Positions 1 through 20,941 of a stretch of 22,378 nucleotides of DNA are shown here, piece after piece. The position numbers and the translations under genes were made by a program. The DNA comes from a virus (lineage: Duplodnaviria > Heunggongvirae > Uroviricota > Caudoviricetes). The notes below the pieces were generated by a model. The model had not been told where the DNA came from. It was given only the letters and a program-made list of their open reading frames with translations, and made no database searches. Positions within the stretch are counted from its first letter, which is position 1. Each line of letters opens with the position of its first letter. The DNA lies in IMG/VR virus record IMGVR_UViG_2721755651_000013, one strand, 5' to 3'.

Positions 1-126
1 ATGTCTGCACCTGCATTGCCTGATGTCAGAACAGTATTTTGATTAATTGCCAGGGTTACAATGGCACAAATGCGGCACAGGAGGAAACGTGGTGTATTTA
101 AATATGGGGTAACTACTTGATTTAAA

Positions 127-142
127 TGGTGCGATAATAGGA
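127..142. repeat. Putative left att direct repeat of the P4-like element (tggtgcgataatagga; imperfect copy of the tRNA-Thr 3'-end core found at 13013..13030)
   Basis: 16-nt stretch matches tggtgccgataatagga at 13013..13029 except for one missing c, in the same orientation; spacing of about 12.9 kb fits a P4-like satellite. Short and imperfect, so tentative. Confidence 0.3.
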
Positions 143-675
143 ACCAATAATCGCCACCAACACAATGATTTTAATACATAAATTAAAATAGAAGATTTAA
201 ACTACACACACCCCTATACACATTGGTGAAGGCGTTCGCTTTCCGCGCATTCTCAAGGCAGAAAAAACTTTTTTTGGGGGAAAACTGTTCATACTACTCA
301 TTGTGTTTTTTTTCATTAATATTCAAAAAGATATGAAATTAACGATTGATAAGAAGTGAACACTTTACTGTTCACCTTGACTGATTAATAAGTGCATAAA
401 AACCTAATTTTTGAGCACGGAAGGTATTTGTTCCTTACCCCATTTTTTCTCTTTAGTCCAGTACAACAAAAAATGCGCCCAACAGAAAACTGTTTTGAAT
501 TTAAATGCAATCGCTTTGTAGTGATTGTAACGTAAGTTGATTTGATGGGTGCGATTTTGTTTAGCGATAATGGTATGTTGTAAAAATCATTTCGTTGCAA
601 TAAAATTGCATCGCTACATTTTATAGACAATATCAATTAAATTTTAATACTCATTATTAATTTTGAGGCTAACAA

Positions 676-1632
676 GTGACTAGTTATTCAAACTTTTCCA
701 ATCAAATAAAAGAAACCATCAATAATAAATTCGATCATGAAATTCATGATTGGGACATTATAAAAAACTCAATCACAACTTTAATAAATAAAAATATCCA
801 TGGTGCAGGTAGAAATATCGTTGATTTTATAGATTTAGGTAACTGGGATTTTATTTCAAACTTTTCCTTTGATGACTCTACAAGAAGACTTGAATTAGAG
901 TGGCACCCCAATGATAAATTCCATATATATATTGAGTCCGTTGTGTTTGTCGAGTTTAATGACACTATATATGCTTTCTTAAAGGGATACTATCACAATC
1001 AGTTATCTCTAAATAGAATATATAATACAAAATGCTCTTCATGTTCATTTGAAAACTCAGGTTCTTATATGGTAGACGTTTATAGAACGGTTAAAAGAGT
1101 AAATGAGACAATCCAGACCCCAAATATAAATTGCTATACTACATGTATTTTAACAAGGCCCGCAAATGGTCATGTTACATCTACAGGCTTCTCACGAAAC
1201 CTCATGGATGCGATAAATATTTCATTAGCAGAGCACAAAATAGCCTCTTTACATAATGAAGTCATGAGTATTGAGGAATATGATCGTGATTCTTTACAAG
1301 AGAAAGGAAATACTGCCAGGAGATATTTAGAATATATTCTCATGCTTGTTAATATTCGTATAATGCATTTAAACAACGTTCAATACCAAGAGCAAATGCT
1401 AGGTAGTTTAGTTTCTGTTATTGAGGCTCTGGACTATGAACCATTAATGAAAAATGATGTTGAAATTACAAAGGACATCCTTAATGCTTGCAGCCACCAC
1501 GGGGGGGTTAGAATTGAAAAGAAAGATGTAATTTTTTCTTTGGAAGTTATTGAAAACTTAATTAAAGCCATAAAGAAAACCGACATAAATAAATTACAAC
1601 TCGATGGGATGTTTAAATCAATTCAAAAATAA
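676..1632 (+). CDS. Hypothetical protein, AT-rich orphan cargo gene at the alpha-distal end of the P4-like element
   Basis: 318-aa ORF with GTG start preceded by GAGG about 6 nt upstream; strongly AT-rich compared with the neighbouring P4 core genes; strong hairpin downstream; no motif I can recognise. Confidence 0.6.
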   Translation: MTSYSNFSNQIKETINNKFDHEIHDWDIIKNSITTLINKNIHGAGRNIVDFIDLGNWDFISNFSFDDSTRRLELEWHPNDKFHIYIESVVFVEFNDTIYAFLKGYYHNQLSLNRIYNTKCSSCSFENSGSYMVDVYRTVKRVNETIQTPNINCYTTCILTRPANGHVTSTGFSRNLMDAINISLAEHKIASLHNEVMSIEEYDRDSLQEKGNTARRYLEYILMLVNIRIMHLNNVQYQEQMLGSLVSVIEALDYEPLMKNDVEITKDILNACSHHGGVRIEKKDVIFSLEVIENLIKAIKKTDINKLQLDGMFKSIQK

Positions 1633-1737
1633 ACATCATCTAACAATGAATTAGATGCATTTTCCGCTGACGCCTTAGCATATAACTTTTAAATTTTATC
1701 GATATATATTTTGAGATAATTTCCTGTAGCGGATTTA

Positions 1738-1758
1738 AGACCGGCACAGCCGGTCTTA
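1738..1758. terminator. Hairpin aagaccggc-aca-gccggtctt between the convergent 318-aa gene and alpha (putative bidirectional terminator)
   Basis: Perfect 9-bp GC-rich stem with 3-nt loop immediately 3' of both convergent genes; no clean U-tract, so termination efficiency is uncertain. Confidence 0.45.
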
Positions 1759-1764
1759 GGTCAG

Positions 1765-4098
1765 TTATTTCGCTGCAAACTCATCGCATTTTGGCAACCA
1801 GTCAGCATTGCTTTCCTCTCTTAGGGCCAGATTAGTCTGCATTCCTTGATTGGTCCGTCGTTTCTCATACTGCAGCCCATATTCCTTGAGCATTAACGGT
1901 AGCCCCTTGCCAAACATGGTCAGACTGAGCGTATTTTTATAGCCGTTAGCCTCCATGTAGACCAGATAGGCATGGTAGAGGTAAGTTCGAGGCTGACGTG
2001 GAACAATATTAGCGTTCCCCATAAACATGCCCGTGGTGTCAGGTAGGACCTCAAGGTAGCCGCAAAAATCAAAAGCTGAATCAGCATCACGTTTGATGGT
2101 GAGCGCTTCATCGGAGTTCTGCTGTGACTGAAGCAATGTCCTGGCACTCATTGGGTCGCTGAAACGCTGCATAAGCTGGCGAACAATCACCGCTAGCTCA
2201 CTGGCAATTTTCTCTTTGAGCTGGGTATCGCGTTCCTCCGGGGCTATCTGGTCGGGGAAATGCAGGATCACCCTTCGGCGTGAAACTCCACCACTACGAT
2301 CAGTGAAGCGCATCGGATTATTGTTCACAGCCAGGATGACCGCCGGGATGTGGGTTGAATAGGCGTTCTGATATTTGGGATCAACGGATACCGCATCGCC
2401 GCCAGTGATGGCTTTTAGTCCGGCCCCGTCACCGCTCCACTTTTCCTGGTCGGGAAGTCGAATCAGTGAAAAACCTATTAACGCAGCTCGTTCTCTTGGC
2501 GACTCAAGCATTTCAATGGTTGCCGAGGTCGCGTTATCTTCACCCGCCAGCATGGTTGCTATTTCAGCAAGAATACTCTTTCCACTTCCGCCAGGGCCAG
2601 TGACCTCCAGAAACAGCTGCCAGTCATAACGGTTAGCCAGCACCATAAACAATGCAGCCAGAATAATGTCCCGTTTTTCAGGATTAAAACCTGCGGCACG
2701 ATCCAGCCAGCGCCAGAATGCCGGGGCATGGGTTTCCAGTGACTCACCGTCAACGGGCTGCGTGTAATCCACCTCGCACAGCGTACGTAACCAGTGCTTC
2801 TTATCGTGCGGGCTGAACAATCCTGTCCGGGTATCGAGCACACCGTTGCGAAATCCGATAAGTTGCCGCGCCGGATTCTGCTGTTGCGGAACGATCAGTT
2901 TGAGGGTTTCCACGAGAGACGCAATTTTCGCGGATGAAAAAGGTGCGTCGAGGCGCTGAAACAGCGCAGCGACATCACGGGCAAAATCGGCGTAATAGAT
3001 AACTTTCCAGGCCCCCGCCTCATAGCGTGAAAGGAGCTGCCCGTTCGGGTCTACTGCCAGTGAATTTTTATAGTGATCCACTACCCTCTGCGCTTTTTCG
3101 CTGACGCTCAGCGCGGTAAATTCAGCTTCGCTCATTGTGTCGAAGGGGCTGGCAACAGCTGGTTTTATTACTTCATGAATTGCATGCCGGGTGGCTTCTT
3201 CGCCGTTTTGCGTGAATGCATCGTTCCAGTCACCAAACACAGGCGGGAGCGCCATTGTGCAATTGCAGGCCCCGGTAACAGCTGCGCCCCTTGTTTGCCC
3301 CGCACCGTTGAGATCGCGGTCAGCAGCAATAATTATCTGGTGCGTTGGGTACTCACTGCAGGCAATGCTCGCCAGGGAAAGGAAATTGACGGACGAAAAG
3401 GCCACCATGACAGCATCGCCAGTCAGATAGTTGATAGTAAGTGCGGTGGCATATCCTTCCGCTATCCAGAGCCGTTTGGCTGCTTTGGCAGTACCTTCAA
3501 CCAGGTAAAAGGCATTCTTAACCTGACCGCCTTTAAGGAAGCATTTGCCCCCATTAGCGTTGATTAACTGCAGATTTACCAGCTCTCCATCTGCATACAA
3601 TGGAACGACAAGATCTCCCGCGCGAAATGCCACACCACCGACTTTATGCATAGCGGTTAATTCCCGGCAAGGCAGTGCAGGAAACCCTTTACTCGTCAGA
3701 TAGGCATTGCCAGTGGTCTGGCGGGACTTATCAAACAAACGGGCAGCCAGCACTGCTGCAGCTTTTCTCCCGTCCTCTTTTTCAGGAGAACCAGATTCAA
3801 GCATTCCCTGAGATACTGGCAGCAGGTTTCCGATAATGCCGTTTATTCTGTCTGCCGCTTCACTAATGCCTACATCCAGTACTTTACTTACAAGCGCCAG
3901 GCCATCACCTGCCCCGCACTGGTTACAGAACCACGTTCCCCGCCCTTCCTGGTCATCAAATCGAAAGCGGTCTTTCCCGGCACAGACCGGGCAGGGCTGG
4001 TGCCGATTTTTCAGTACATTTACGCCCAGCGCAGGTAAAATTCTTGACCAGTGACCCCGAGCTGCTTTCTCAGCCTGGCTAACTTTCATTCCTGACAT
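1765..4098 (-). CDS. P4 alpha-type bifunctional primase/helicase (zinc-binding primase domain + TOPRIM + D5-type NTPase)
   Basis: Protein has CPVCAGKDRFRFDD...FCNQCG zinc motif, Walker A GPGGSGKS, and overall P4 alpha-like layout. Start moved to the ATG at 4096..4098 because AAGGAGG lies 8 nt upstream; this gives 777 aa. The ORF-track start at 4155 is probably an upstream extension. Confidence 0.9.
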   Translation of the reverse strand: MSGMKVSQAEKAARGHWSRILPALGVNVLKNRHQPCPVCAGKDRFRFDDQEGRGTWFCNQCGAGDGLALVSKVLDVGISEAADRINGIIGNLLPVSQGMLESGSPEKEDGRKAAAVLAARLFDKSRQTTGNAYLTSKGFPALPCRELTAMHKVGGVAFRAGDLVVPLYADGELVNLQLINANGGKCFLKGGQVKNAFYLVEGTAKAAKRLWIAEGYATALTINYLTGDAVMVAFSSVNFLSLASIACSEYPTHQIIIAADRDLNGAGQTRGAAVTGACNCTMALPPVFGDWNDAFTQNGEEATRHAIHEVIKPAVASPFDTMSEAEFTALSVSEKAQRVVDHYKNSLAVDPNGQLLSRYEAGAWKVIYYADFARDVAALFQRLDAPFSSAKIASLVETLKLIVPQQQNPARQLIGFRNGVLDTRTGLFSPHDKKHWLRTLCEVDYTQPVDGESLETHAPAFWRWLDRAAGFNPEKRDIILAALFMVLANRYDWQLFLEVTGPGGSGKSILAEIATMLAGEDNATSATIEMLESPRERAALIGFSLIRLPDQEKWSGDGAGLKAITGGDAVSVDPKYQNAYSTHIPAVILAVNNNPMRFTDRSGGVSRRRVILHFPDQIAPEERDTQLKEKIASELAVIVRQLMQRFSDPMSARTLLQSQQNSDEALTIKRDADSAFDFCGYLEVLPDTTGMFMGNANIVPRQPRTYLYHAYLVYMEANGYKNTLSLTMFGKGLPLMLKEYGLQYEKRRTNQGMQTNLALREESNADWLPKCDEFAAK

Positions 4099-4111
4099 TG
4101 TGCGGCCCTCC

Positions 4112-4435
4112 TTAGTGCAGCGCTGGTTTGTTGAGGTGACGGGAACAAAGTTCATCCATGACCGTCATTCCGAGCAGTGAGAGAACCGGACAGGCTTTAA
4201 GCGGCCCCGACTCCATCAGATCCGAAAGCAACGCGCAGGCAATTTCCAGCCCTCTTTGCTGCCCATGCTGGCGCAGATAGAACCCTTCCAGCTCGCGGGC
4301 TATGGCATCTTCAAGTTCAGCGAGCGTCAGGCCGGAATAACGTTCCTGATGATTGCTTAGAGCCAGCCAGGCACAGGCAACGGCACGGCGATACAGAGCG
4401 GCACGAAGTGCCAGAAGAGATTCACAGCATATCAT
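4112..4435 (-). CDS. Small hypothetical protein of the P4-like early (alpha) operon
   Basis: 107-aa ORF, GGAGGTG Shine-Dalgarno about 7 nt upstream, TGATG stop/start overlap with upstream ORF, same strand as and directly upstream of alpha. Function not assignable from sequence. Confidence 0.55.
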
Positions 4436-4656: not shown

Positions 4657-5206
4657 AGCGTCACCTCCCCGGCAGGCAGCCGTGCAGAAAGGGAGAGTAC
4701 ATAATCTCGGACTAGCAAACGGCGCGCGGAACGCTCATCGCAGGAGACAGTGCGAAGCATACAGATGCGGGGGTGAGTGTCAGCACGGCGGATTGCGGCA
4801 AACACAAAGACATATTGCGGGTGTGACGGGGTGAGGATTGTAGCCATGATGGCAGCCTCCAATAAGTAGCGGTTATTGCTACCACCGGAAACGCCAATTT
4901 CACTGGTGGCAGCCCGAACGGGGTTGGCGTAACCGGCCTTATTGGAAACCGGCCAGCCCGAAGGCTGCCCCGCCCGGACTACCATTATCTCGATAGAACC
5001 ATGGTGTAAGCATAAACACCACAGCCCTGAAAATGGTTGTGCCTGAGCTACGACGTAAAAAAAGACGCAAGGGGCGTCAATTGTCGCCAATAAGTTATAC
5101 GGAACGCCAATTCCGGCTGCCGATTTTGCGACAGCGGAAAAACTATACCTGGAAATGACGACAGTAAGCAAGCCAGAATAAAGGTATTTAATGTATGCAG
5201 GTATCA

Positions 5207-8388: not shown

Positions 8389-8955
8389 TTAAACAGGATA
8401 AAAACCAGAGCTTCCATTCTTATTTAAGTTATGGATTTTATTTGCATCATTAATTTTTATTTGGAACGTCGGACCTTTATTCTCAAGAATTACAATCTGG
8501 AAATTATAGTCCCTTTTGATTAATGCGTGATAAAATGAATCACTGAGACTGACGCTATTAACATCCGATAGAGAACCCCCTCTATCTTTATCAAAGTGCG
8601 TCACTAATGGACTATCAAGCACAACAAATCCAATGAATGGATTCCCTTTTCTTGATAAAAATTCCGCAAAGCAAATGGTAAATATAGCATGCATTACTGC
8701 ACGGGTACCTTTACCAAACATTCCTCGGCGTTTCCCATTGATATTAAAGTCATATGTATCTTCGTCAAATCGCACTTTGTTATCTTTAGAATTTTCAAAA
8801 TTTATATCATTCAAAAAGTCTTGCATCGCTATTTCTATATCATACAAATCAGCTACTGTTAAGGAGTCAAAGTCCTCGGCGGAGTATTTAAGTTCGTCAA
8901 CATCATCTTCTTTATCTTGTAATGAAGATAGAATGCTATGTTTTGTGTGATCCAT
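8389..8955 (-). CDS. C-terminal ABC/SMC-type ATPase head segment (putative Walker B/D-loop region) of the cargo ATPase
   Basis: 188 aa; GMFGKGTRAVMHAIF (signature-like) followed by NPFIGFVVLDSPLVTHFD (hydrophobic strand + Asp, Walker-B-like); TAATG stop/start overlap with the upstream ORF; no Shine-Dalgarno; reading frame is open about 20 codons upstream of the ATG. Confidence 0.5.
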   Translation of the reverse strand: MDHTKHSILSSLQDKEDDVDELKYSAEDFDSLTVADLYDIEIAMQDFLNDINFENSKDNKVRFDEDTYDFNINGKRRGMFGKGTRAVMHAIFTICFAEFLSRKGNPFIGFVVLDSPLVTHFDKDRGGSLSDVNSVSLSDSFYHALIKRDYNFQIVILENKGPTFQIKINDANKIHNLNKNGSSGFYPV

Positions 8956-9545
8956 TAAAAGATTGTCTTTATATTCATAAAGTGATTCAAGAGATGAATG
9001 TATTGTTTTATATTTTTATCTTCTAACGTCTTAAAATCACTTTTTTCTGATTGATAAATTTCATTAACATCATTTTTTCTTAACATAATTAATTCATGTT
9101 CGCGAACATTAGATCCGATTGATTCAATTAATCCTTTCAGCTGGCTTTTGATTTTCAATTTTTCTGCATTACACGACAAAAAACAATCATCATATGATAT
9201 TTCATTTTCTTTTTTTTGCGGTGTATTACAGAACTCACAATAAATATCTGCAAAATTATTTAAATAGAAATTCGCCTGTGATACAACATCTATTCTTTGT
9301 AGATCTATAAAGTATTGGTCTTTAAGAAGACTAAATCTTTCAATGAGTAATGATAAGTATTTTTCCCTGTCACTGATTGAATATAATTCATCACTTAACT
9401 CTTTTAATAATTGCTTCTTATCATCAAGTGCATCAACAATACCTTTCAATATATCTTTCGATGATTCAATATCTTGCTCTACTTTCTCAAGTTCTCTTGA
9501 AACAATGACTTGATCATATTCAGGATAAATTAATTGCGCTTTCAA
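8955..9545 (-). CDS. Coiled-coil segment of the cargo SMC-like ATPase (no canonical start; same frame as the upstream ORF, separated by one TAA)
   Basis: 196 aa, highly charged (E/K/D/L-rich) helical heptad-like sequence; ORF-track start is TTG with no usable Shine-Dalgarno spacing; in frame with 9576..10208. Confidence 0.45.
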   Translation of the reverse strand: MKAQLIYPEYDQVIVSRELEKVEQDIESSKDILKGIVDALDDKKQLLKELSDELYSISDREKYLSLLIERFSLLKDQYFIDLQRIDVVSQANFYLNNFADIYCEFCNTPQKKENEISYDDCFLSCNAEKLKIKSQLKGLIESIGSNVREHELIMLRKNDVNEIYQSEKSDFKTLEDKNIKQYIHLLNHFMNIKTIF

Positions 9546-9575
9546 TTCCTCATAAATATTTGCAATTTGATTTTT

Positions 9576-10208
9576 TTAAAAATATCTTGCTTTTTTATTT
9601 GGTTTTTCTGCTAAGGAGTTAGTATCATCTCTCTGAGTTAAAAGGAATTTAAATTCAGACTTTCTTTTTGTCTCCTCGCTAGGAATATCAGAAAGAATTA
9701 ACGACTTCTCAGTTAACACTCTTAATTCATCAATACAAAAAAATTCAAAAACATTATTAAGATTAAATTTATGAAGAGTATTACTTAAGTTTGTTCTTAC
9801 TTTAGCCTCTTTGAAATTCAACCTACCATAAAAGTATGATGAAAAACTCTTTTTAGACGAAGCACTTTTGGAAAAAACCATCAACAGATTAGCTTCACTA
9901 ACATTTTCAATGCTCGAATCATATAATCTGTAATGGGCGCTATCCTGAAGAGACCTCTCAATTGTCATTACCCTACCTTGAAAATTAAATTCCAGATAGG
10001 CTAAATCATAACCTTGAGCATGATCGATATCTTTATTTTTTAGTTTTTCACTCCCTAATAAATATCGAATCAAATAATATATGTATGTTTTTCCAGAGTC
10101 AGAACCACCATATAAAATAGTCAATTTAGAACCAAATTCAATTATAGCATCTAATTTATTGAATCCGGTTACCTTTATTTTTCTGAACGTAAAAAAATTG
10201 TCATTCAT
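9576..10208 (-). CDS. N-terminal ABC/SMC-type ATPase head with Walker A (GGSDSGKT)
   Basis: MNDNFFTFRKIKVTGFNKLDAIIEFGSKLTILYGGSDSGKTYIYYL is the canonical N-terminal strand plus P-loop layout of RecF/SbcC/SMC-like ABC ATPases; start moved to the ATG at 10206..10208, which overlaps the upstream stop (ATGAATGA). Confidence 0.65.
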   Translation of the reverse strand: MNDNFFTFRKIKVTGFNKLDAIIEFGSKLTILYGGSDSGKTYIYYLIRYLLGSEKLKNKDIDHAQGYDLAYLEFNFQGRVMTIERSLQDSAHYRLYDSSIENVSEANLLMVFSKSASSKKSFSSYFYGRLNFKEAKVRTNLSNTLHKFNLNNVFEFFCIDELRVLTEKSLILSDIPSEETKRKSEFKFLLTQRDDTNSLAEKPNKKARYF

Positions 10209-10659
10209 AATTAAATTCCATATCATATTTGCCAATTTTATTTTTTATAATTGATTGCAACTGCTCATCAGGAATATCACTATATAACTTAACCACCAAA
10301 TTTATATTATGCTCCATCTGCGCAACATATTCATTATGTAGAGAATTTGTAAATGCATATGTTTTTTCAGAAGCTTTATATACAAAACCACGATGTGTAT
10401 AAATTTTTGAGGCTAGTTCATAGCCTTGCAACAAAGCCAATGATTCTAAAACAATCTCTCGTTTTAGGGCTAACTGAGCATCTCTACGGGGTATTGGAGG
10501 ATGAAGACTAATCTCTTCAGGTAAAAAATCCTTAAGATTTACTAAAATAAAATCAAAACAAATAAGCCGTTCAAGGCTTAATGAAGAAGGATAAATAGCG
10601 ACGAGCACTTTCGCCATTCGACATGCCACTTCTAAACTTGAATTATAAATTCTAACCAT
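10201..10659 (-). CDS. Small alpha-helical protein, putative middle component (LmuC-like) of a three-component ATPase system
   Basis: 152 aa when started at the ATG at 10657..10659 (TAATG overlap with upstream stop, GGTGAG upstream); located between the nuclease-like ORFs and the ATPase, as in ABC-3C/Lamassu type II loci. Assigned by position and size only. Confidence 0.5.
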   Translation of the reverse strand: MVRIYNSSLEVACRMAKVLVAIYPSSLSLERLICFDFILVNLKDFLPEEISLHPPIPRRDAQLALKREIVLESLALLQGYELASKIYTHRGFVYKASEKTYAFTNSLHNEYVAQMEHNINLVVKLYSDIPDEQLQSIIKNKIGKYDMEFNYE

Positions 10660-11276
10660 TATCTCACCGTCCAAATTACTTCACCATCATTAACCAAATG
10701 ATGGCATATTCCTTTTTTATCATTTGCTTCACATATTTTTGATAGTACTGAATGTGCAATTGGTGTCAGAACAGCCTGCTTCAAGACTGCATTACACCTA
10801 ATAAATGCATAATTATGGTCTTCATAAAAGACGGGTTCAATTGAAGATGAAATGTAACATTTCAATGCTTTGAATACATCATCTTTAAATACTTCGCGGA
10901 CAAAAACCTCAAGCGAAGATGCAAAATAAAAATCATTTCTACTATTATTAAAGTGTCGTCTGTATGGATCATCAAGCTCTAAGAAAGAACTATAAGTTTT
11001 ATTTCCATGCTCTGAATAGGCTTGAAGCAGTGCATTAACATATACAGACTCTTTTTTTGAATTGTATGTTGGAATTTCATTTGGAGGGATTCTCACGACA
11101 TACAGCTCGTTAAAGTACTTAAAATAAAGGTGTGTATTTGCAATATCATTTAAAATCAATGATAAGGGTAGAGAGTAAAAAATACTAAAATCAAAATCCT
11201 CAATATATTTTTTTATTTCATCATCTAATGGAATATCAATCTTTTTAGTTATTTTTTTGAAATTGCTGAATCCCAT
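10659..11276 (-). CDS. Hypothetical protein; probably the C-terminal part of the effector, reachable by a -1 shift from 11249..11665
   Basis: 205 aa; only one Met (the start) and no Shine-Dalgarno; overlaps the upstream ORF by 28 nt in the -1 frame across an A7 tract. Confidence 0.5.
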   Translation of the reverse strand: MGFSNFKKITKKIDIPLDDEIKKYIEDFDFSIFYSLPLSLILNDIANTHLYFKYFNELYVVRIPPNEIPTYNSKKESVYVNALLQAYSEHGNKTYSSFLELDDPYRRHFNNSRNDFYFASSLEVFVREVFKDDVFKALKCYISSSIEPVFYEDHNYAFIRCNAVLKQAVLTPIAHSVLSKICEANDKKGICHHLVNDGEVIWTVR

Positions 11277-11665
11277 GAATCAAGGACTGCTTTTTTAAGC
11301 TCGTTTTTATTTTTCAATAAATTAGAAAATGTAGTAGATAAATCATAGGGTGCCACAAAAAAGTACTTCTGAGGGATGGGATAATCACCATTCAGAGTAA
11401 AATAGATAAGTTTTCCAAACTCAACTACAACATCAGAGAACCCTAAACTTTTTTTGTACAGTTTGCATTGATAATTATCCCAAGAATAACCTTCTACGTT
11501 AGGATCCGATTTATATCCAACAACGTCTCTACCTTTATCTCCAGCTCCTCCCAAACGTTCGCTCCACGGGTAATCATCTGATTTACAGACAATAAGCCAA
11601 TCATGGACAAATACCTCCCATTGTTCATCATCCCATGTCAATATTTCCGAAAGTGGTTGAGACAC
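11249..11665 (-). CDS. Mrr-like PD-(D/E)xK nuclease domain protein (putative effector N-terminal domain)
   Basis: 138 aa; WEVFVHDWL...GGAGDKGRDVVGY...YQCKLY matches the E ... G-D-x-G-x-D ... Q-x-K pattern of Mrr-type restriction-endonuclease catalytic domains; GTG start with AAGGAG 7 nt upstream, embedded in the 3' end of int. Confidence 0.6.
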   Translation of the reverse strand: MSQPLSEILTWDDEQWEVFVHDWLIVCKSDDYPWSERLGGAGDKGRDVVGYKSDPNVEGYSWDNYQCKLYKKSLGFSDVVVEFGKLIYFTLNGDYPIPQKYFFVAPYDLSTTFSNLLKNKNELKKAVLDSWDSAISKK

Positions 11666-11668
11666 AAA

Positions 11669-12850
11669 TTAACTCCTTTTTAGTCTTTCAAATATCAAAT
11701 TACTGTACCAGTCCATCATAGACTTCCTTCCACTAAAATATTGAGCATGGTTATAAGTCCCCCTAATAGAATTTTTATCTACATGAGCCAACTGGATTTC
11801 AATCCAAGCACTCTCAAAACCTTGCTCATGCAGGATTGTAGAAAGGGTATGACGAAAACCATGTCCAGTGACTTTTCCTCCATACCCAATACGCTTAATG
11901 GCTTGATTTATACTCGCTTCGCTCATTGGCCTATTCGGATCGTTCCGCCCTGGAAAAACATAACGATAGTTCCCTGTCATGATCTTGAGTTCATTGAGTA
12001 AATCTACCGCTTGAGATGATAAGGGCACAAGATGTGGCCTACGCATTTTCATCCTTTCAGCAGGAATTTCCCAAATAGCGTTATCCAGATCAAATTCTTG
12101 CCATAATGCCGCGCGTAATTCGATGGTTCTCACACCCGTAATCATCAGTAATTTCGTGGCTATCTGGACAAGCTTACTCCCGGAGTAACCCTCTAAGGCA
12201 CGTAGAAAATCAGGTATCTCATCAGCTTTTAGGAATGGGAAATGATTGGATTGGTGTACTTCGAGAGCGCTGGAGAGATCAGCCGCAGGATTGTACTCCG
12301 CCCTACCCGTTGCAATTGCGTAGCGAAACACTTCGGAGCAACGCTGCCGCACTTTGCGCATTTTCTCCAACGCACCACGTTTCTCAATTTTACGCAGAAC
12401 GTTCAGCAGCTCTAGCGGTTTAATCTCTCCCACAGGCCTTGTTCCGACATAAGGAAAAATGTCGTTCTTAAACGCTTCCATGATGTCTGATGCATATCCC
12501 GCCGACCATTTAGCAGATTTAAGTTGATGCCACTCTCTGGCTATCTTTTCGAAGGCGTTCTCTGACTCTGTTTGCATAGCTAGCTTTTGCTCTTTTCGAA
12601 CCTCACTAGGGTTCTTTCCTTCTGCCACAAGTTTTCGAGCTTCATCACGACGGGAACGAGCATCGGCAAGGGTGATCGTTGGGTAAACACCAAGCGAGAT
12701 CATTTTGGGTTTGCCGGCATAGCGATAGCGGAACCGCCAACTCTTGCTTCCATTAGGTTCTATAAGTAATGACAACCCTAGCCCATCTCCAAATGTATAG
12801 GCTTTAGCTTCAGGCTTAGCGCGGCGAATCTGCATATCGTTTAAAGGCAT
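11669..12850 (-). CDS. int: P4-type tyrosine integrase
   Basis: N-terminus MPLNDMQIRRAKPEAKAY...DGLGLSLLIEPNGSKSWRFRYR is the P4-integrase N-terminal signature; C-terminal HGFRHT...Y catalytic motifs; start moved to the ATG at 12848..12850 (393 aa); adjacent to a tRNA-derived att. Confidence 0.9.
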   Translation of the reverse strand: MPLNDMQIRRAKPEAKAYTFGDGLGLSLLIEPNGSKSWRFRYRYAGKPKMISLGVYPTITLADARSRRDEARKLVAEGKNPSEVRKEQKLAMQTESENAFEKIAREWHQLKSAKWSAGYASDIMEAFKNDIFPYVGTRPVGEIKPLELLNVLRKIEKRGALEKMRKVRQRCSEVFRYAIATGRAEYNPAADLSSALEVHQSNHFPFLKADEIPDFLRALEGYSGSKLVQIATKLLMITGVRTIELRAALWQEFDLDNAIWEIPAERMKMRRPHLVPLSSQAVDLLNELKIMTGNYRYVFPGRNDPNRPMSEASINQAIKRIGYGGKVTGHGFRHTLSTILHEQGFESAWIEIQLAHVDKNSIRGTYNHAQYFSGRKSMMDWYSNLIFERLKRS

Positions 12851-12897
12851 GTGTATAGGAATCCAGACCGAACAGGAACATATACACAATCCTATAC
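12851..12897. repeat. 10-bp inverted repeat GTGTATAGGA-N27-TCCTATACAC immediately upstream of int
   Basis: Exact inverted repeat seen directly, with a third TATACACA copy between; a likely int promoter/operator or arm-type site. Confidence 0.4.
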
Positions 12898-13012
12898 ACA
12901 TTCAGTACCGGATTCTACTGGATGGTTACGGACTACTATGGACTTAAAAGAATAAAAAATGTTATAAATCAGAGATTTTATGGACTAATACGGACGTTTG
13001 AGGAAGTTGAGA

Positions 13013-13058
13013 TGGTGCCGATAATAGGAGTCGAACCTACGACCTTCGCATTACGAAT
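13013..13058 (-). other. 3' 46 nt of a tRNA-Thr(CGU)-like gene (anticodon loop to CCA): att core of the P4-like element; the tRNA 5' half is absent
   Basis: Reverse complement reads ATTCGTAATGCGAAGGTCGTAGGTTCGACTCCTATTATCGGCACCA: T-arm GTAGG-TTCGACT-CCTAT, acceptor 3' strand, CCA; upstream sequence cannot pair as acceptor, D or anticodon-stem 5' strands. Confidence 0.6.
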
Positions 13059-13405
13059 TATAAGAATCCGCTTCTAATTCAAAGCATTACCCCATCAACA
13101 CTGCGCTCACACGTCCCACCACATCAAAACATGTAAAGCCTTGCAAGCCATTGCGAGGCCTTATGTGTCTCAGTTTTGTCCCACCTTGTATTACGACTTG
13201 CATAGCCAATGAAGATAAACGTGACGACAAACGGCGCAGCAGTCTTCTTTTCTTTCACGACTTCTCCAGCATGCATACCTTTCTGCCATGACTGAAGTGA
13301 ATGCCTGTTATGAGCAAGGATTGGCCCAGATGAATCGCCCTGGACTGTTGCGATCGTGAAGCCATAGACTGGGCCGCAAGCACGGGAGGTTACGATAAAG
13401 CGACA

Positions 13406-13771
13406 GTGCAGGATGTCATGTTAGGAGCGATAGAAAAACGCTTTGGCGATAAAGTACCGGAACAGTCCATCCAGTGGCTGACAGATAACGGTTCAGCGTA
13501 TAGAGCGCATGAAACACGGCAGTTCGCCAGAGAGTTGAATCTGGAGCCCTGCACAACGGCAATCAGCAGTCCTCAGAGTAATGGAATTGCAGAAAGGTTC
13601 GTGAAAACGATGAAGGAAGACTACATCGCGTTCATGCCGAAACCGAATGTAAGAACGGCATTGCATAATCTTGCAGTGGCGATCGAACATTACAATGAAA
13701 ACCATCCGCACAGTGCGTTGGGTTATCGCTCTCCGCGAGAATATCGACGTCAGCGGGTAACGTTAACTTAA
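13406..13771 (+). pseudogene. IS3-family (IS2-like) transposase OrfB C-terminal fragment
   Basis: 121-aa ORF ends ...[23 protein letters not shown]...[19 protein letters not shown], the typical C-terminus of IS3-family integrase-core transposases; the N-terminal part and OrfA are absent, so this is a remnant. Confidence 0.65.
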
Positions 13772-15432: not shown

Positions 15433-16319
15433 TCAGGCTGCCAGATCATCGTTTCCGATGGAAGCATAATAAGCTTTTTCTGCTTCTGCCGGAGGAGTAT
15501 GGCCCAGCCTTCCCAGCAATCGTCGATTGTTATACCAGTCCACCCACGTTAGTGTGGCCAGTTCCACTTCTGCACGGTTTTTCCAGCTCTTACGGTGTAT
15601 TACCTCCGCTTTGTAAAGACCATTGATGCTCTCAGCCATCGCGTTGTCATACGAGTCGCCTGTACTCCCTGTTGATGCCAGTAATCCGGCTTCTTTTAGT
15701 CGCTCCGTATAGGCCAGTGACACATACTGAGAGCCTTTATCGCTGTGATGGATGGTGCCAGACGGACGACGGGCCCACAACGCCTGCTCCAGCGCATCCA
15801 GCACGAATGTCGTTTCCATAGACGATGAGACCCGCCACCCCACGATGTATCCGGCAAACACATCAATGATAAACGCCACATAGACGAAGCCCTGCCATGT
15901 GCTGACGTAAGTAAAATCAGCCACCCACAGCTGGTCAGGTCGTTCTGCCACGAACTGACGGTTTACGCGGTCGCCTGCGGCAACGGCTTTCCGGCTGATG
16001 GTCGTACGGACCTTTTTACCCCGGAGAACACCGGCAAGTCCCATAACCGCCATGAGACGTGCCACTGTACATCTGGCCACCCTGATTCCTTCCCGTAACA
16101 ACTGACGCCAGACTTTACGCACACCGTACACCTGATGATTTTCATCGTATACGCGCTGTATCTCTCTCTTCAGCCAGTCGTCGTGCTGCGCACGGGCACT
16201 GCGTTTATCCGGATGATGTCGCTGTTGCTGACAATGGTAATACGTTGACGGGGCAATATGCAGTTCGCTGCATACCGGTCCGACCCCGTACTGCTCACGC
16301 AGCTTATCCAGCAGTGGCA

Positions 16320-16323
<4 letters not shown>
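15433..16323 (-). CDS. IS3-family transposase OrfB (DDE integrase core)
   Basis: 296 aa with the characteristic IS3 OrfB layout; overlaps orfA in the -1 frame across an A6 tract (TGGAAAAAATGATG), the usual frameshift window. Confidence 0.9.
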
Positions 16324-17466
<1,143 letters not shown>

Positions 17467-17523: not shown

Positions 17524-18078
17524 TCATTTATCTCCGGCCGGAAACTTCTTATACAGTGTCGATACACCAACATCATAGATGATCGCTACCTTCTGGCGAG
17601 GAATTCCTGCTGCAATTAATCGTCCGGCCTGCGCCCATTGTTCTGGTGTAAGTTTGGGACGACGTCCACCAATTCGTCCCTGTGCGCGAGCAGCTTCCAG
17701 TCCAGCTTTTGTTCGTTCAACAATCAGTTCTCGTTCCATTTCAGCCAGGGCCCCCATCACATGAAAGAAAAAGCGCCCCATTGGGGTACTGGTATCAATA
17801 GCATCCGTCAGGCTGCGAAAATTAACGCCACGTTCGCGCAACTCCTCAACCAGAATGACCAGATGCCGCATACTGCGCCCCAGCCGATCCAGTTTCCAGA
17901 CAACCAGAGTGTCACCTGCCGATAATGTCCTGAGCAGTTTTTTCAGTCCCGGCCTTTCGGACTTTGTACCGCTTATCTTGTCTTCAAAAATCAGCTCGCA
18001 TCCTGCACAGTTCAGCGCATTACGTTGTAGATCTGTGTTCTGGTCATTTGTTGACACACGTACATAGCCAATAAGCAT
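17524..18078 (-). CDS. pin: Serine-recombinase DNA invertase of the Pin/Gin/Hin/Cin family
   Basis: MLIGYVRVSTNDQNTDLQRNAL... with catalytic Ser and C-terminal HTH; matches what I recall of e14 Pin; 184 aa when started at the ATG at 18076..18078. Confidence 0.9.
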   Translation of the reverse strand: MLIGYVRVSTNDQNTDLQRNALNCAGCELIFEDKISGTKSERPGLKKLLRTLSAGDTLVVWKLDRLGRSMRHLVILVEELRERGVNFRSLTDAIDTSTPMGRFFFHVMGALAEMERELIVERTKAGLEAARAQGRIGGRRPKLTPEQWAQAGRLIAAGIPRQKVAIIYDVGVSTLYKKFPAGDK

Positions 18079-18104
18079 GGTAGATCTCCCTGACAAAAGC
18101 AGGA

Positions 18105-18602
18105 ATGATGCCATTTGCTCGTTATTTCTGCATTTTCATAAACGTTGGTTTGGGAGAAGGTGCTCCAGCTATTGGCGTTCCGTTCTTCTGGCCGTCCGCT
18201 GCAATGCCAAATACTGTAATCGACAGCTGGTCCTGTATGGTGTTTTTGAAGTTCAACGGCGCGAAATTCTCTGCCACTGATTATCCTGTGCTGGCGAAAG
18301 TGTTTCCTTCGCTGGTATTACCTGAAGCCCGCGGTGATTTCATTCGTATCTGGGATGACGGGCGAGGTGCAGACGGTGGTCGCGAATTATTAAGCTGGCA
18401 GGCAGCTACAAACTTTTCTCAGTTTGCCGGGAATATAGGCGAAGGTGCGGGACACGCAATTAACTTTCATGATGGCATCGCCGGAAATCAGCCAGGATTT
18501 TCACGATTTAATTTCACCAGTAACTCTGTGGGTGATGGTGTGAATTTTGTTGCAGTCAGACCGCGAAATATTGCATTTAACTTTCTGGTGAGGGCTAAAT
18601 AA
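18105..18602 (+). CDS. Tail-fibre C-terminal variable segment (Sv/StfE'-like gene segment inside an invertible region)
   Basis: ...KFSATDYPVLAKVFPSLVLPEARGDFIRIWDDGRGADGGR...NIAFNFLVRAK is the conserved tail-fibre tip motif of Mu S / e14 Stf / T4 gp37-type fibres; no own promoter or start expected for a gene segment. Confidence 0.65.
   Translation: MMPFARYFCIFINVGLGEGAPAIGVPFFWPSAAMPNTVIDSWSCMVFLKFNGAKFSATDYPVLAKVFPSLVLPEARGDFIRIWDDGRGADGGRELLSWQAATNFSQFAGNIGEGAGHAINFHDGIAGNQPGFSRFNFTSNSVGDGVNFVAVRPRNIAFNFLVRAK
18133..18158. other. Putative invertase crossover site (gix/hix/pix-like), TTTTCATAAACGTTGGTTTGGGAGAA
   Basis: 26-bp imperfect dyad with half-sites ending AAAC / GTTT around a central dinucleotide, adjacent to the pin start, resembling hix/gix sites as I recall them. 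Confidence 0.4.
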
Positions 18603-19727: not shown

Positions 19728-20054
19728 ATGACTAAAAATACTCGTTTTTCCCCCGAAGTCCGTCAGCGGGCGATTCGTATGGTTCTGGAAAGTCAGGATG
19801 AATATGACTCACAGTGGGCGGCAATTTGTTCCATTGCCCCAAAGATTGGCTGTACGCCGGAGACTCTGCGTGTCTGGGTTCGCCAGCATGAGCGGGATAC
19901 CGGGGGCGGTGATGGTGGGCTCACCAGCGCTGAACGTCAGCGTCTGAAAGAGCTGGAACGTGAAAATCGTGAACTGCGCCGCAGTAACGATATCCTTCGC
20001 CAGGCTTCCGCTTATTTTGCGAAGGCGGAGTTCGACCGCCTCTGGAAAAAATGA
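19728..20054 (+). CDS. IS3-family transposase OrfA
   Basis: Identical 108-aa protein to 16320..16646. Confidence 0.9.
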
Positions 20055-20941
20055 TGCCACTGCTGGATAAGCTGCGTGAGCAGTACGGGGTCGGACCGGT
20101 ATGCAGCGAACTGCATATTGCCCCGTCAACGTATTACCATTGTCAGCAACAGCGACATCATCCGGATAAACGCAGTGCCCGTGCGCAGCACGACGACTGG
20201 CTGAAGAGAGAGATACAGCGCGTATACGATGAAAATCATCAGGTGTACGGTGTGCGTAAAGTCTGGCGTCAGTTGTTACGGGAAGGAATCAGGGTGGCCA
20301 GATGTACAGTGGCACGTCTCATGGCGGTTATGGGACTTGCCGGTGTTCTCCGGGGTAAAAAGGTCCGTACGACCATCAGCCGGAAAGCCGTTGCCGCAGG
20401 CGACCGCGTAAACCGTCAGTTCGTGGCAGAACGACCTGACCAGCTGTGGGTGGCTGATTTTACTTACGTCAGCACATGGCAGGGCTTCGTCTATGTGGCG
20501 TTTATCATTGATGTGTTTGCCGGATACATCGTGGGGTGGCGGGTCTCATCGTCTATGGAAACGACATTCGTGCTGGATGCGCTGGAGCAGGCGTTGTGGG
20601 CCCGTCGTCCGTCTGGCACCATCCATCACAGCGATAAAGGCTCTCAGTATGTGTCACTGGCCTATACGGAGCGACTAAAAGAAGCCGGATTACTGGCATC
20701 AACAGGGAGTACAGGCGACTCGTATGACAACGCGATGGCTGAGAGCATCAATGGTCTTTACAAAGCGGAGGTAATACACCGTAAGAGCTGGAAAAACCGT
20801 GCAGAAGTGGAACTGGCCACACTAACGTGGGTGGACTGGTATAACAATCGACGATTGCTGGGAAGGCTGGGCCATACTCCTCCGGCAGAAGCAGAAAAAG
20901 CTTATTATGCTTCCATCGGAAACGATGATCTGGCAGCCTGA
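20051..20941 (+). CDS. IS3-family transposase OrfB
   Basis: Identical 296-aa protein to 15433..16323. Confidence 0.9.

Follow-up and report, generated by a model that had tools for sequence, protein, structure and literature searches.

Locus, satellite and cargo slots

The window, by which we mean the whole stretch of 22,378 nucleotides that was analysed (IMG/VR record IMGVR_UViG_2721755651_000013), is the thrW island of E. coli O157:H7, and the element it carries is a thrW-integrated P4-like satellite of E. coli O157:H7/O55:H7 (Table 1). A P4-like core of DUF5375, an Icd-like gene, AlpA, sid/psu/delta and the integrase is present, and Rfam places the P4 immunity RNA (C4 antisense, CI-type) and isrK at 4902-4989 and 5058-5135 on the minus strand, inside ORFs that a mechanical ORF list labels 'Icd-like'. 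The longest ORF for alpha is 796 aa versus 777 aa in RefSeq, leaving its start codon uncertain by 19 codons.

Table 1. Features of the thrW satellite discussed in the text (window coordinates)
Feature	Position	Strand	Remarks
att core copy ATGGTGC-GATAATAGGA	124..142	.	distal element end; repeats the thrW 3′ end
Leader of the cargo module	143..675	+	AT-rich (31.5% GC), non-coding, 533 nt; carries GAGG at 665-668
318-aa gene (ORF)	676..1632	+	GTG start, TAA stop
N-terminal alpha+beta domain	676..1155	+	residues 1-160; beta-rich
C-terminal HEPN-fold domain	1183..1632	+	residues 170-318 + stop; HEPN fold in the predicted structure
Stem-loop, 14-bp, GC-rich	1732..1762	.	between the convergent 318-aa gene and alpha
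P4 alpha-type primase-helicase	1765..4155	-	borders the cargo slot on its core side
LmuB	9576-10235, 8955-9545, 8389-8955	-	three ORFs (PADLOC)
LmuC	10201-10674	-	intact (PADLOC)
LmuA	11249-11665, 10659-11276	-	two ORFs (PADLOC)
P4-type tyrosine integrase	11669..12901	-	opposite element end
Truncated thrW	13013..13058	-	3′ 46 nt only; adjoins int; holds the integrase-proximal att core

An earlier reading, made from the letters of the window alone (the sequence-only reading), had placed the gene at 676-1632 as cargo between the 3′ end of alpha and a putative left att repeat, and both parts of that placement hold. The repeat is real, as the copy at 124-142 repeats the thrW 3′ end and equals 13011-13029 save for a 1-nt deletion. 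Positions 1-123 are native chromosomal flank, and about 3,670 E. coli genomes have positions 1-142, at 94-98% identity, as their native sequence downstream of thrW. With one att copy here and the other within thrW, the alpha-to-att slot occupied by the 318-aa gene belongs to the element. A 22-nt imperfect direct repeat (86% identical; 203-224, TACACACACCCCTATACACATT, and 12881-12902, TATACACAATCCTATACACATT) has one copy close to each att end, on the inner side, the right-hand copy overlapping the start of int, and these repeats may be integrase arm-type sites. As thrW is truncated and ARAGORN finds no intact tRNA within the window, the satellite may no longer excise cleanly. After the truncated thrW comes a partial IS 'integrase core' gene (13338-13771). 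The window also holds two inverted IS3-family copies, 15433-16646 (-) and 19728-20941 (+), each with an ALIL frameshift pseudoknot, which enclose a Pin-type invertase gene (17524-18114) and what is left of the tail fibres of a decayed prophage. This enclosed segment is oriented unlike that of strain CDC#03-98 (L001), suggesting an inversion between the two copies.

The content of the alpha-to-att slot differs among related P4-like elements, which supports its description as a cargo position. In strain 1368KP the slot holds an HNH endonuclease (L021 2168-2818) together with fragments, in strain LAU-OXA it is empty, and in strain 13P460A, at the same thrW site, it holds a different protein of 365 aa (L023 2789-3886) that has a GAGFS start and a weak SIR2 match (E 0.0044). 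The 365-aa protein and the HNH endonuclease are both putative defence candidates. A 2026 survey describes the slot as a minor P4 defence hotspot that accounts for 7% of systems (PMC13586616), and the 318-aa gene has the attributes of this primase-to-att hotspot, being bounded by att, located between alpha and att, and set in a variable slot. The main P4 hotspot, from delta to int, is occupied in our satellite by a Lamassu system that PADLOC detects at 8389-11665 (-) and whose ORFs are labelled ABC-three-component, AAA or hypothetical in RefSeq. This system appears to be broken and, since it is split into fragments, no candidate defence cargo of the satellite other than the 318-aa gene is intact.

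The 318-aa gene and its product

The gene is real, intact and under strong purifying selection. By our own arithmetic the chance of a 318-codon stop-free run at 31% GC is about 1e-11, dN/dS against an 80%-identical Citrobacter copy is 0.06, and the homologues are full-length and intact, mostly 300-330 aa long with both halves present. Alignment of the homologues begins at residue 1, which supports the GTG start. The ribosome-binding site and strong AT-richness that had been read from the sequence are borne out by a GAGG Shine-Dalgarno sequence 7 nt before the GTG, and by a GC content of 31.3% in the gene versus 52.3% in alpha. The leader is as AT-rich as the gene and always accompanies it (308 records), is not conserved at the Citrobacter copy, and contains promoter-like sites at no more than chance frequency. 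Rfam has no match within or near the gene. In RefSeq the product is WP_000205213.1, a 'hypothetical protein'; the gene is intact and at least 99% identical in 306 complete genomes, and O157:H7 chromosomes match positions 400-1800 at 100% identity. Out of 5,426 complete E. coli genomes, 307 carry this region, those of O55:H7 being among the carriers. A match on a plasmid proved to be a mis-assigned copy of the same O157 element. A near-identical P4-like element (L032 905-1853, IMG/VR UViG_2923272612_000005; alpha 99.7%) carries a copy of the gene that is spread over three reading frames at only about 84-96% identity, and either the allele has become a pseudogene or the assembly is faulty.

The strong downstream hairpin of the sequence-only reading was also recovered, and it serves alpha as well. 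It is the only terminator-like site in 100-1900, and the segment 1625-1775 around it folds at -37.3 kcal/mol (z = -4.3). The stem-loop begins 100 nt past the stop of the 318-aa gene and directly abuts the stop of alpha at 1765, so that it is common to both convergent genes and is likely to be a bidirectional terminator. A second, weaker and AT-rich hairpin lies at 1637-1657.

AlphaFold2, run with a 35-sequence alignment, gives a confident two-domain model of the protein (pLDDT 89, pTM 0.85). The C-terminal domain has the fold of the HEPN superfamily, a four-helix up-down bundle of two alpha-hairpins with an insert between H2 and H3, and its closest HEPN structures are those of the MNT-associated HepT/HEPN-M clade (7ae2, 5yep, 8xdj, 1jog, 1ylm). 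Across 44 family members, down to about 20% identity, R215 (1318-1320), E219 (1330-1332), H274 (1495-1497) and G277 are invariant, and all four fall in the C-terminal domain; N212, R216, N270 (1483-1485) and S273 of the same domain are near-invariant. These residues form a helix-2 motif, N-T-x-R-R-x-x-E-x-x-L-K (M in place of K in the 318-aa protein), and a motif at the end of helix 3, N-x-x-S-H-D-[ST]-G, which is the HEPN 'R-N-x-x-x-H' minus its Arg. The sequence-only reading had recognised no motif here; the C-terminal half nonetheless has the HEPN fold and a conserved R-x3-E / N-x3-H set. The acidic Ex3[KR] feature typical of HEPN domains (PMC3710099) is present, with E219 invariant in the consensus RRxxExxLK. 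The canonical Rx4-6H catalytic motif is absent, as no Arg is conserved at positions -5 to -7 of H274, which are L/I/D in the 318-aa protein and variable across the family. HEPN families with the conserved His and without the Arg are on record, namely c2405 (fused to AbiTii) and Parep1 (PMC3710099).

In the N-terminal domain the family-wide residues are D50 (823-825), F51, D53 (832-834), W57, D58 and W76, and together they form a conserved patch, G-x4-D50-F-x-D53-x-x-N-W57-D58 plus W76, in which the G is G45. The domain shows a weak nucleotidyltransferase (NTase)-like fold resemblance, which we take as a lead only; the canonical hG[GS]-x9-13-DxD signature is absent from it.

Searches with the 318-aa protein against Pfam, NCBIfam, PHROGs and PADLOC gave nothing significant, and no defence HMM of PADLOC-DB v2 matched the protein or its 44 relatives. 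Three profiles, one of the full family, one of the broad family and one of the C-terminal domain alone, were searched against PDB sequences, likewise without a significant match, and Foldseek against the PDB returned none with E < 0.01. When Pfam, NCBIfam, PHROGs and PADLOC were run on the 44 family members, only sub-threshold matches to AAA_13 and DUF4145 were seen. AAA_13 is matched by 3 of the 44 (best E 7.8e-4; best 14.3 bits versus a cut-off of 36), in the case of P0056 over profile positions 567-687 of 713, the C-terminal nuclease region of PrrC, and DUF4145 (PF13643) is matched by 2 of the 44 (best E 0.042, 14.3 bits versus a gathering cut-off of 23.1). These matches, that to AAA_13 through its C-terminal nuclease part, also point to the HEPN reading.

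Family distribution and relation to known systems

The gene is not the orphan that the sequence-only reading took it for, because a family of homologues exists, unannotated throughout and comprising 36 clusters at the 90% identity level and 60 representatives at the 50% level; the same reading's description of the gene as lone stands, with no recurring partner gene among its contexts. In Aeromonas the homologue sits between rep and portal of a P2-like prophage, a classical P2 hotspot, and in Enterobacter it adjoins ogr at the end of a P2-like prophage, while in another E. coli thrW island it lies directly after a P4-type integrase. The Citrobacter homologue is in the cargo region of an ICE, beside an orphan MTase, ArdC and a type I R-M system with an AAA_15 ATPase. 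In Pantoea a lambdoid prophage has the homologue at its end, with Dcm and a Detocs-like kinase as neighbours, and a homologue on a metagenome contig is beside an MmeI-like enzyme. Those of Serratia, Proteus and Paenibacillus are lone insertions in unremarkable chromosomal spots. The genes around ten contexts are unrelated to one another, and nucleotide homology with the Citrobacter copy ends exactly at the limits of the ORF. A conserved partner gene or flanking non-coding element is therefore ruled out, homology being confined to the ORF and the neighbours being unrelated. All copies are AT-rich (29-36% GC) whatever the host. The family thus behaves like a self-sufficient, horizontally mobile single-gene module, found most often at defence-gene sites. 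A scan of species-representative genomes added one locus only, and a profile of the C-terminal domain alone, searched against a set of 5.8 billion proteins, retrieved only fragments of the same family and no labelled HEPN relatives.

One likeness, in residue pattern, is to PrrC, whose essential residues are R320-x3-E324 and N352-x3-H356 (PMC1484252, PMC3025547). R215-x3-E219 and N270-x3-H274 of the 318-aa protein reproduce this arrangement, by pattern and not by residue-level alignment, and the weak family matches to the C-terminal part of Pfam AAA_13 fall on the same side. PrrC and RloC are latent nucleases triggered by infection, and the same is proposed here. Unlike PrrC, however, the 318-aa protein has no ABC-ATPase N-terminal domain and instead carries a beta-rich domain of 160 aa with no P-loop, its window shows no type Ic R-M linkage, and R349 of PrrC has no conserved equivalent in the family. 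Having no ABC-type ATPase and scoring far under the threshold, the protein does not belong to AAA_13.

A second likeness is to c2405, of a DUF4145-like clade, in which an N-terminal alpha+beta region of about 160-180 aa is followed by a HEPN domain that has the His without the Arg (PMC3710099). A protein of strain CFT073 (L033 7572-8744, in the serU island near tcpC) is probably c2405, judging from its position and features and not from a locus tag, and as it fits the published description its RefSeq name is probably misleading. It reads TTCRRLLE...NKGVH, that is T-x-R-R-x-x-E and N-x3-H, much like the N-T-x-R-R-x-x-E and N-x-x-S-H of our family, two members of which have the weak DUF4145 matches. 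An hhalign comparison of the family with this probable c2405 was not significant (E 0.011, probability 4%) and covered the RRxxE motif only. The two differ in that the 318-aa protein has no Pfam AbiTii match and has a beta-rich N-terminal domain with DFxDxxNWD, a motif absent from the CFT073 protein.

Prophage-carried single-protein HEPN anticodon nucleases are established defences, exemplified by HepS (PMC13043305), ApeA and DARNA, all of which are without the beta-rich N-terminal domain of the 318-aa protein. HepS of Gifsy-1 consists of one HEPN domain (about 218 aa) that has the canonical motif, ApeA is an all-helical protein of about 580 aa in three domains, and DARNA has an N-terminal HEPN and a helical C-terminal domain. 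A relationship to ApeA was considered on account of the UniProt label 'ApeA N-terminal domain' on a distant member (P0067), and was rejected when a Pfam scan did not reproduce it; the PADLOC ApeA models match neither the 318-aa protein nor its 44 relatives. RnlA/LsoA (RNase LS) resemble the protein in placing alpha/beta N-terminal domain(s) before a C-terminal HEPN, and they are prophage-borne RNase toxins that act against phage, an action that is putative for the 318-aa protein. They are among its best full-length Foldseek matches, at non-significant values (E 0.07-0.2, TM-scores 0.12-0.19). RnlA, however, has two TBP-like domains, the canonical motif and a cognate antitoxin, RnlB, whereas the 318-aa gene has no partner. 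Finally, the protein cannot be assigned to HepT/MntA or FhepTA, since the NTase motif and RX4HXY with its modifiable Tyr are both absent; what the family conserves is G45-x4-D50-x2-D53 and SH[HD][GS]G, with no Tyr and no Pfam matches. As it has the HEPN fold and falls outside PrrC/RloC, DUF4145, HepT/MntA/FhepTA, ApeA and the PADLOC models, the 318-aa protein is best described as a new family.

A candidate HEPN abortive-infection nuclease

We propose a model in which the 318-aa protein joins a sensor and a HEPN RNase in one self-contained abortive-infection protein and represents a new family of a known kind, and we hold this model with about even confidence. The gene product, carried as cargo by the P4-like satellite, would be a single-polypeptide abortive-infection or toxin-type protein whose effector is the C-terminal HEPN-fold domain acting as a ribonuclease. 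H274, N270, R215/R216 and E219 would make up the active site, which would probably be completed across a HEPN dimer. The N-terminal domain of about 160 residues would keep the nuclease silent until it senses an infection cue, and this cue would be a protein of the phage or else a nucleotide-like ligand that the D50/D53/W57/D58/W76 patch binds. Upon activation the effector would cut RNA, most likely at tRNA anticodon loops as in PrrC, HepS, ApeA and DARNA, translation would stop and phage growth would be aborted. The sequence-only reading had suggested, from the position and composition of the gene, a single-gene defence or abortive-infection factor. This suggestion gains from the HEPN fold and from homologues in P2/P4 hotspots, an ICE and R-M neighbourhoods, but because no defence HMM matches, defence is still something we infer. 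The missing canonical Arg of Rx4-6H counts against the model, as do the failure of Pfam and PDB sequence searches to reach significance and the homologues in unremarkable chromosomal spots.

A bolder form of the model is possible, although we put it forward tentatively and consider it rather doubtful. Here the family would be an unrecognised kind of single-chain defence nuclease in which a PrrC-like R-x3-E / N-x3-H replaces Rx4-6H, gated in cis by an undescribed, distantly NTase-like domain that senses a nucleotide-type signal or modifies its own nuclease, and moving as a bare ORF between P2/P4 hotspots, ICEs and chromosomes. If true, this would be a third solution beside the ABC-ATPase-gated PrrC and the MNT-gated HepT.

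The main rival is that the protein is a two-lobed nucleotidyltransferase, with the architecture of KNTase/LinB/ANT or as a MenT-, AbiEii- or HalB-like enzyme. The N-terminal domain would then be a divergent Pol-beta-type lobe using D50/D53/D58, and the HEPN-like lobe would be non-nucleolytic and bind the substrate or NTP; such an enzyme would nucleotidylate a small molecule, a protein or tRNA, or else synthesise a signalling oligonucleotide, and its role might still lie in defence. The NTase-like fold matches of the N-terminal domain favour it, as does the loss of the motif Arg, given that HEPN domains which follow a nucleotidyltransferase in the same chain and have no catalytic activity are typically without Rx4-6H (PMC3710099). 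It nevertheless lacks the NTase signature, and the invariant residues sit in the HEPN lobe rather than the N-terminal one, so that we regard it as unlikely.

Two further explanations are less likely again, and to about the same degree. The protein could be a fused toxin-antitoxin like FhepTA (MNT-HEPN), with the N-terminal domain neutralising a HEPN toxin in cis, by modification or by blocking its dimerisation, and with stabilisation of the mobile element (addiction) rather than phage defence as the main role. There is a precedent in FhepTA itself, a fused MNT-HEPN of 276 aa on a P4-type prophage that is non-toxic at full length (PMC13000451), the closest HEPN structures belong to the HepT/HEPN-M clade, and the gene occurs on or beside mobile elements. 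The family, however, has no sequence similarity to MntA or HepT, it has SH[HD][GS]G where RX4HXY and its AMPylated Tyr would be needed and no NTase motif, and some copies stand alone in the chromosome, where there is no mobile element for them to stabilise. Alternatively, the HEPN-like domain could be non-catalytic, as in MtlR-type proteins, and the protein an RNA- or nucleic-acid-binding regulator, an anti-defence factor or a factor in the interaction of satellite and helper. Inactive binders do exist in the HEPN superfamily, the Rx4-6H motif is incomplete here, and the host satellite must manipulate its helper phage. Against this, the His, Arg and Glu remain invariant down to about 20% identity, which argues for chemistry rather than mere binding, and the presence of the gene in ICEs, prophages and bare chromosome makes a P4-specific helper function unlikely. 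That the gene is a functionless, decaying remnant in a degenerate satellite, as the split Lamassu of the main hotspot, the truncated thrW, the IS elements flanking the region and the one IMG/VR copy in three frames might suggest, is very improbable given its near-identity in the 306 complete genomes, its low dN/dS, its full-length alignment with homologues and its confident predicted fold.

Candidates for single-gene systems with a HEPN effector are numerous, and what the 318-aa protein adds is its compact architecture, its Arg-less site and its fixation in O157:H7 beside a decayed Lamassu. If it is an active HEPN nuclease, the single-protein tRNase defences would gain a family, the canonical arginine would prove dispensable for a working HEPN domain, and a chain of 318 aa would serve as a compact model of sensor-effector coupling. 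It would also give experimenters a tractable case from the primase-to-att hotspot, which has been little studied in P4-like satellites. Finally, the gene is fixed in the O157:H7/O55:H7 lineage (the 307 complete E. coli genomes out of 5,426), and the range of phages that can grow on O157, Stx and therapeutic phages included, may be affected by it.
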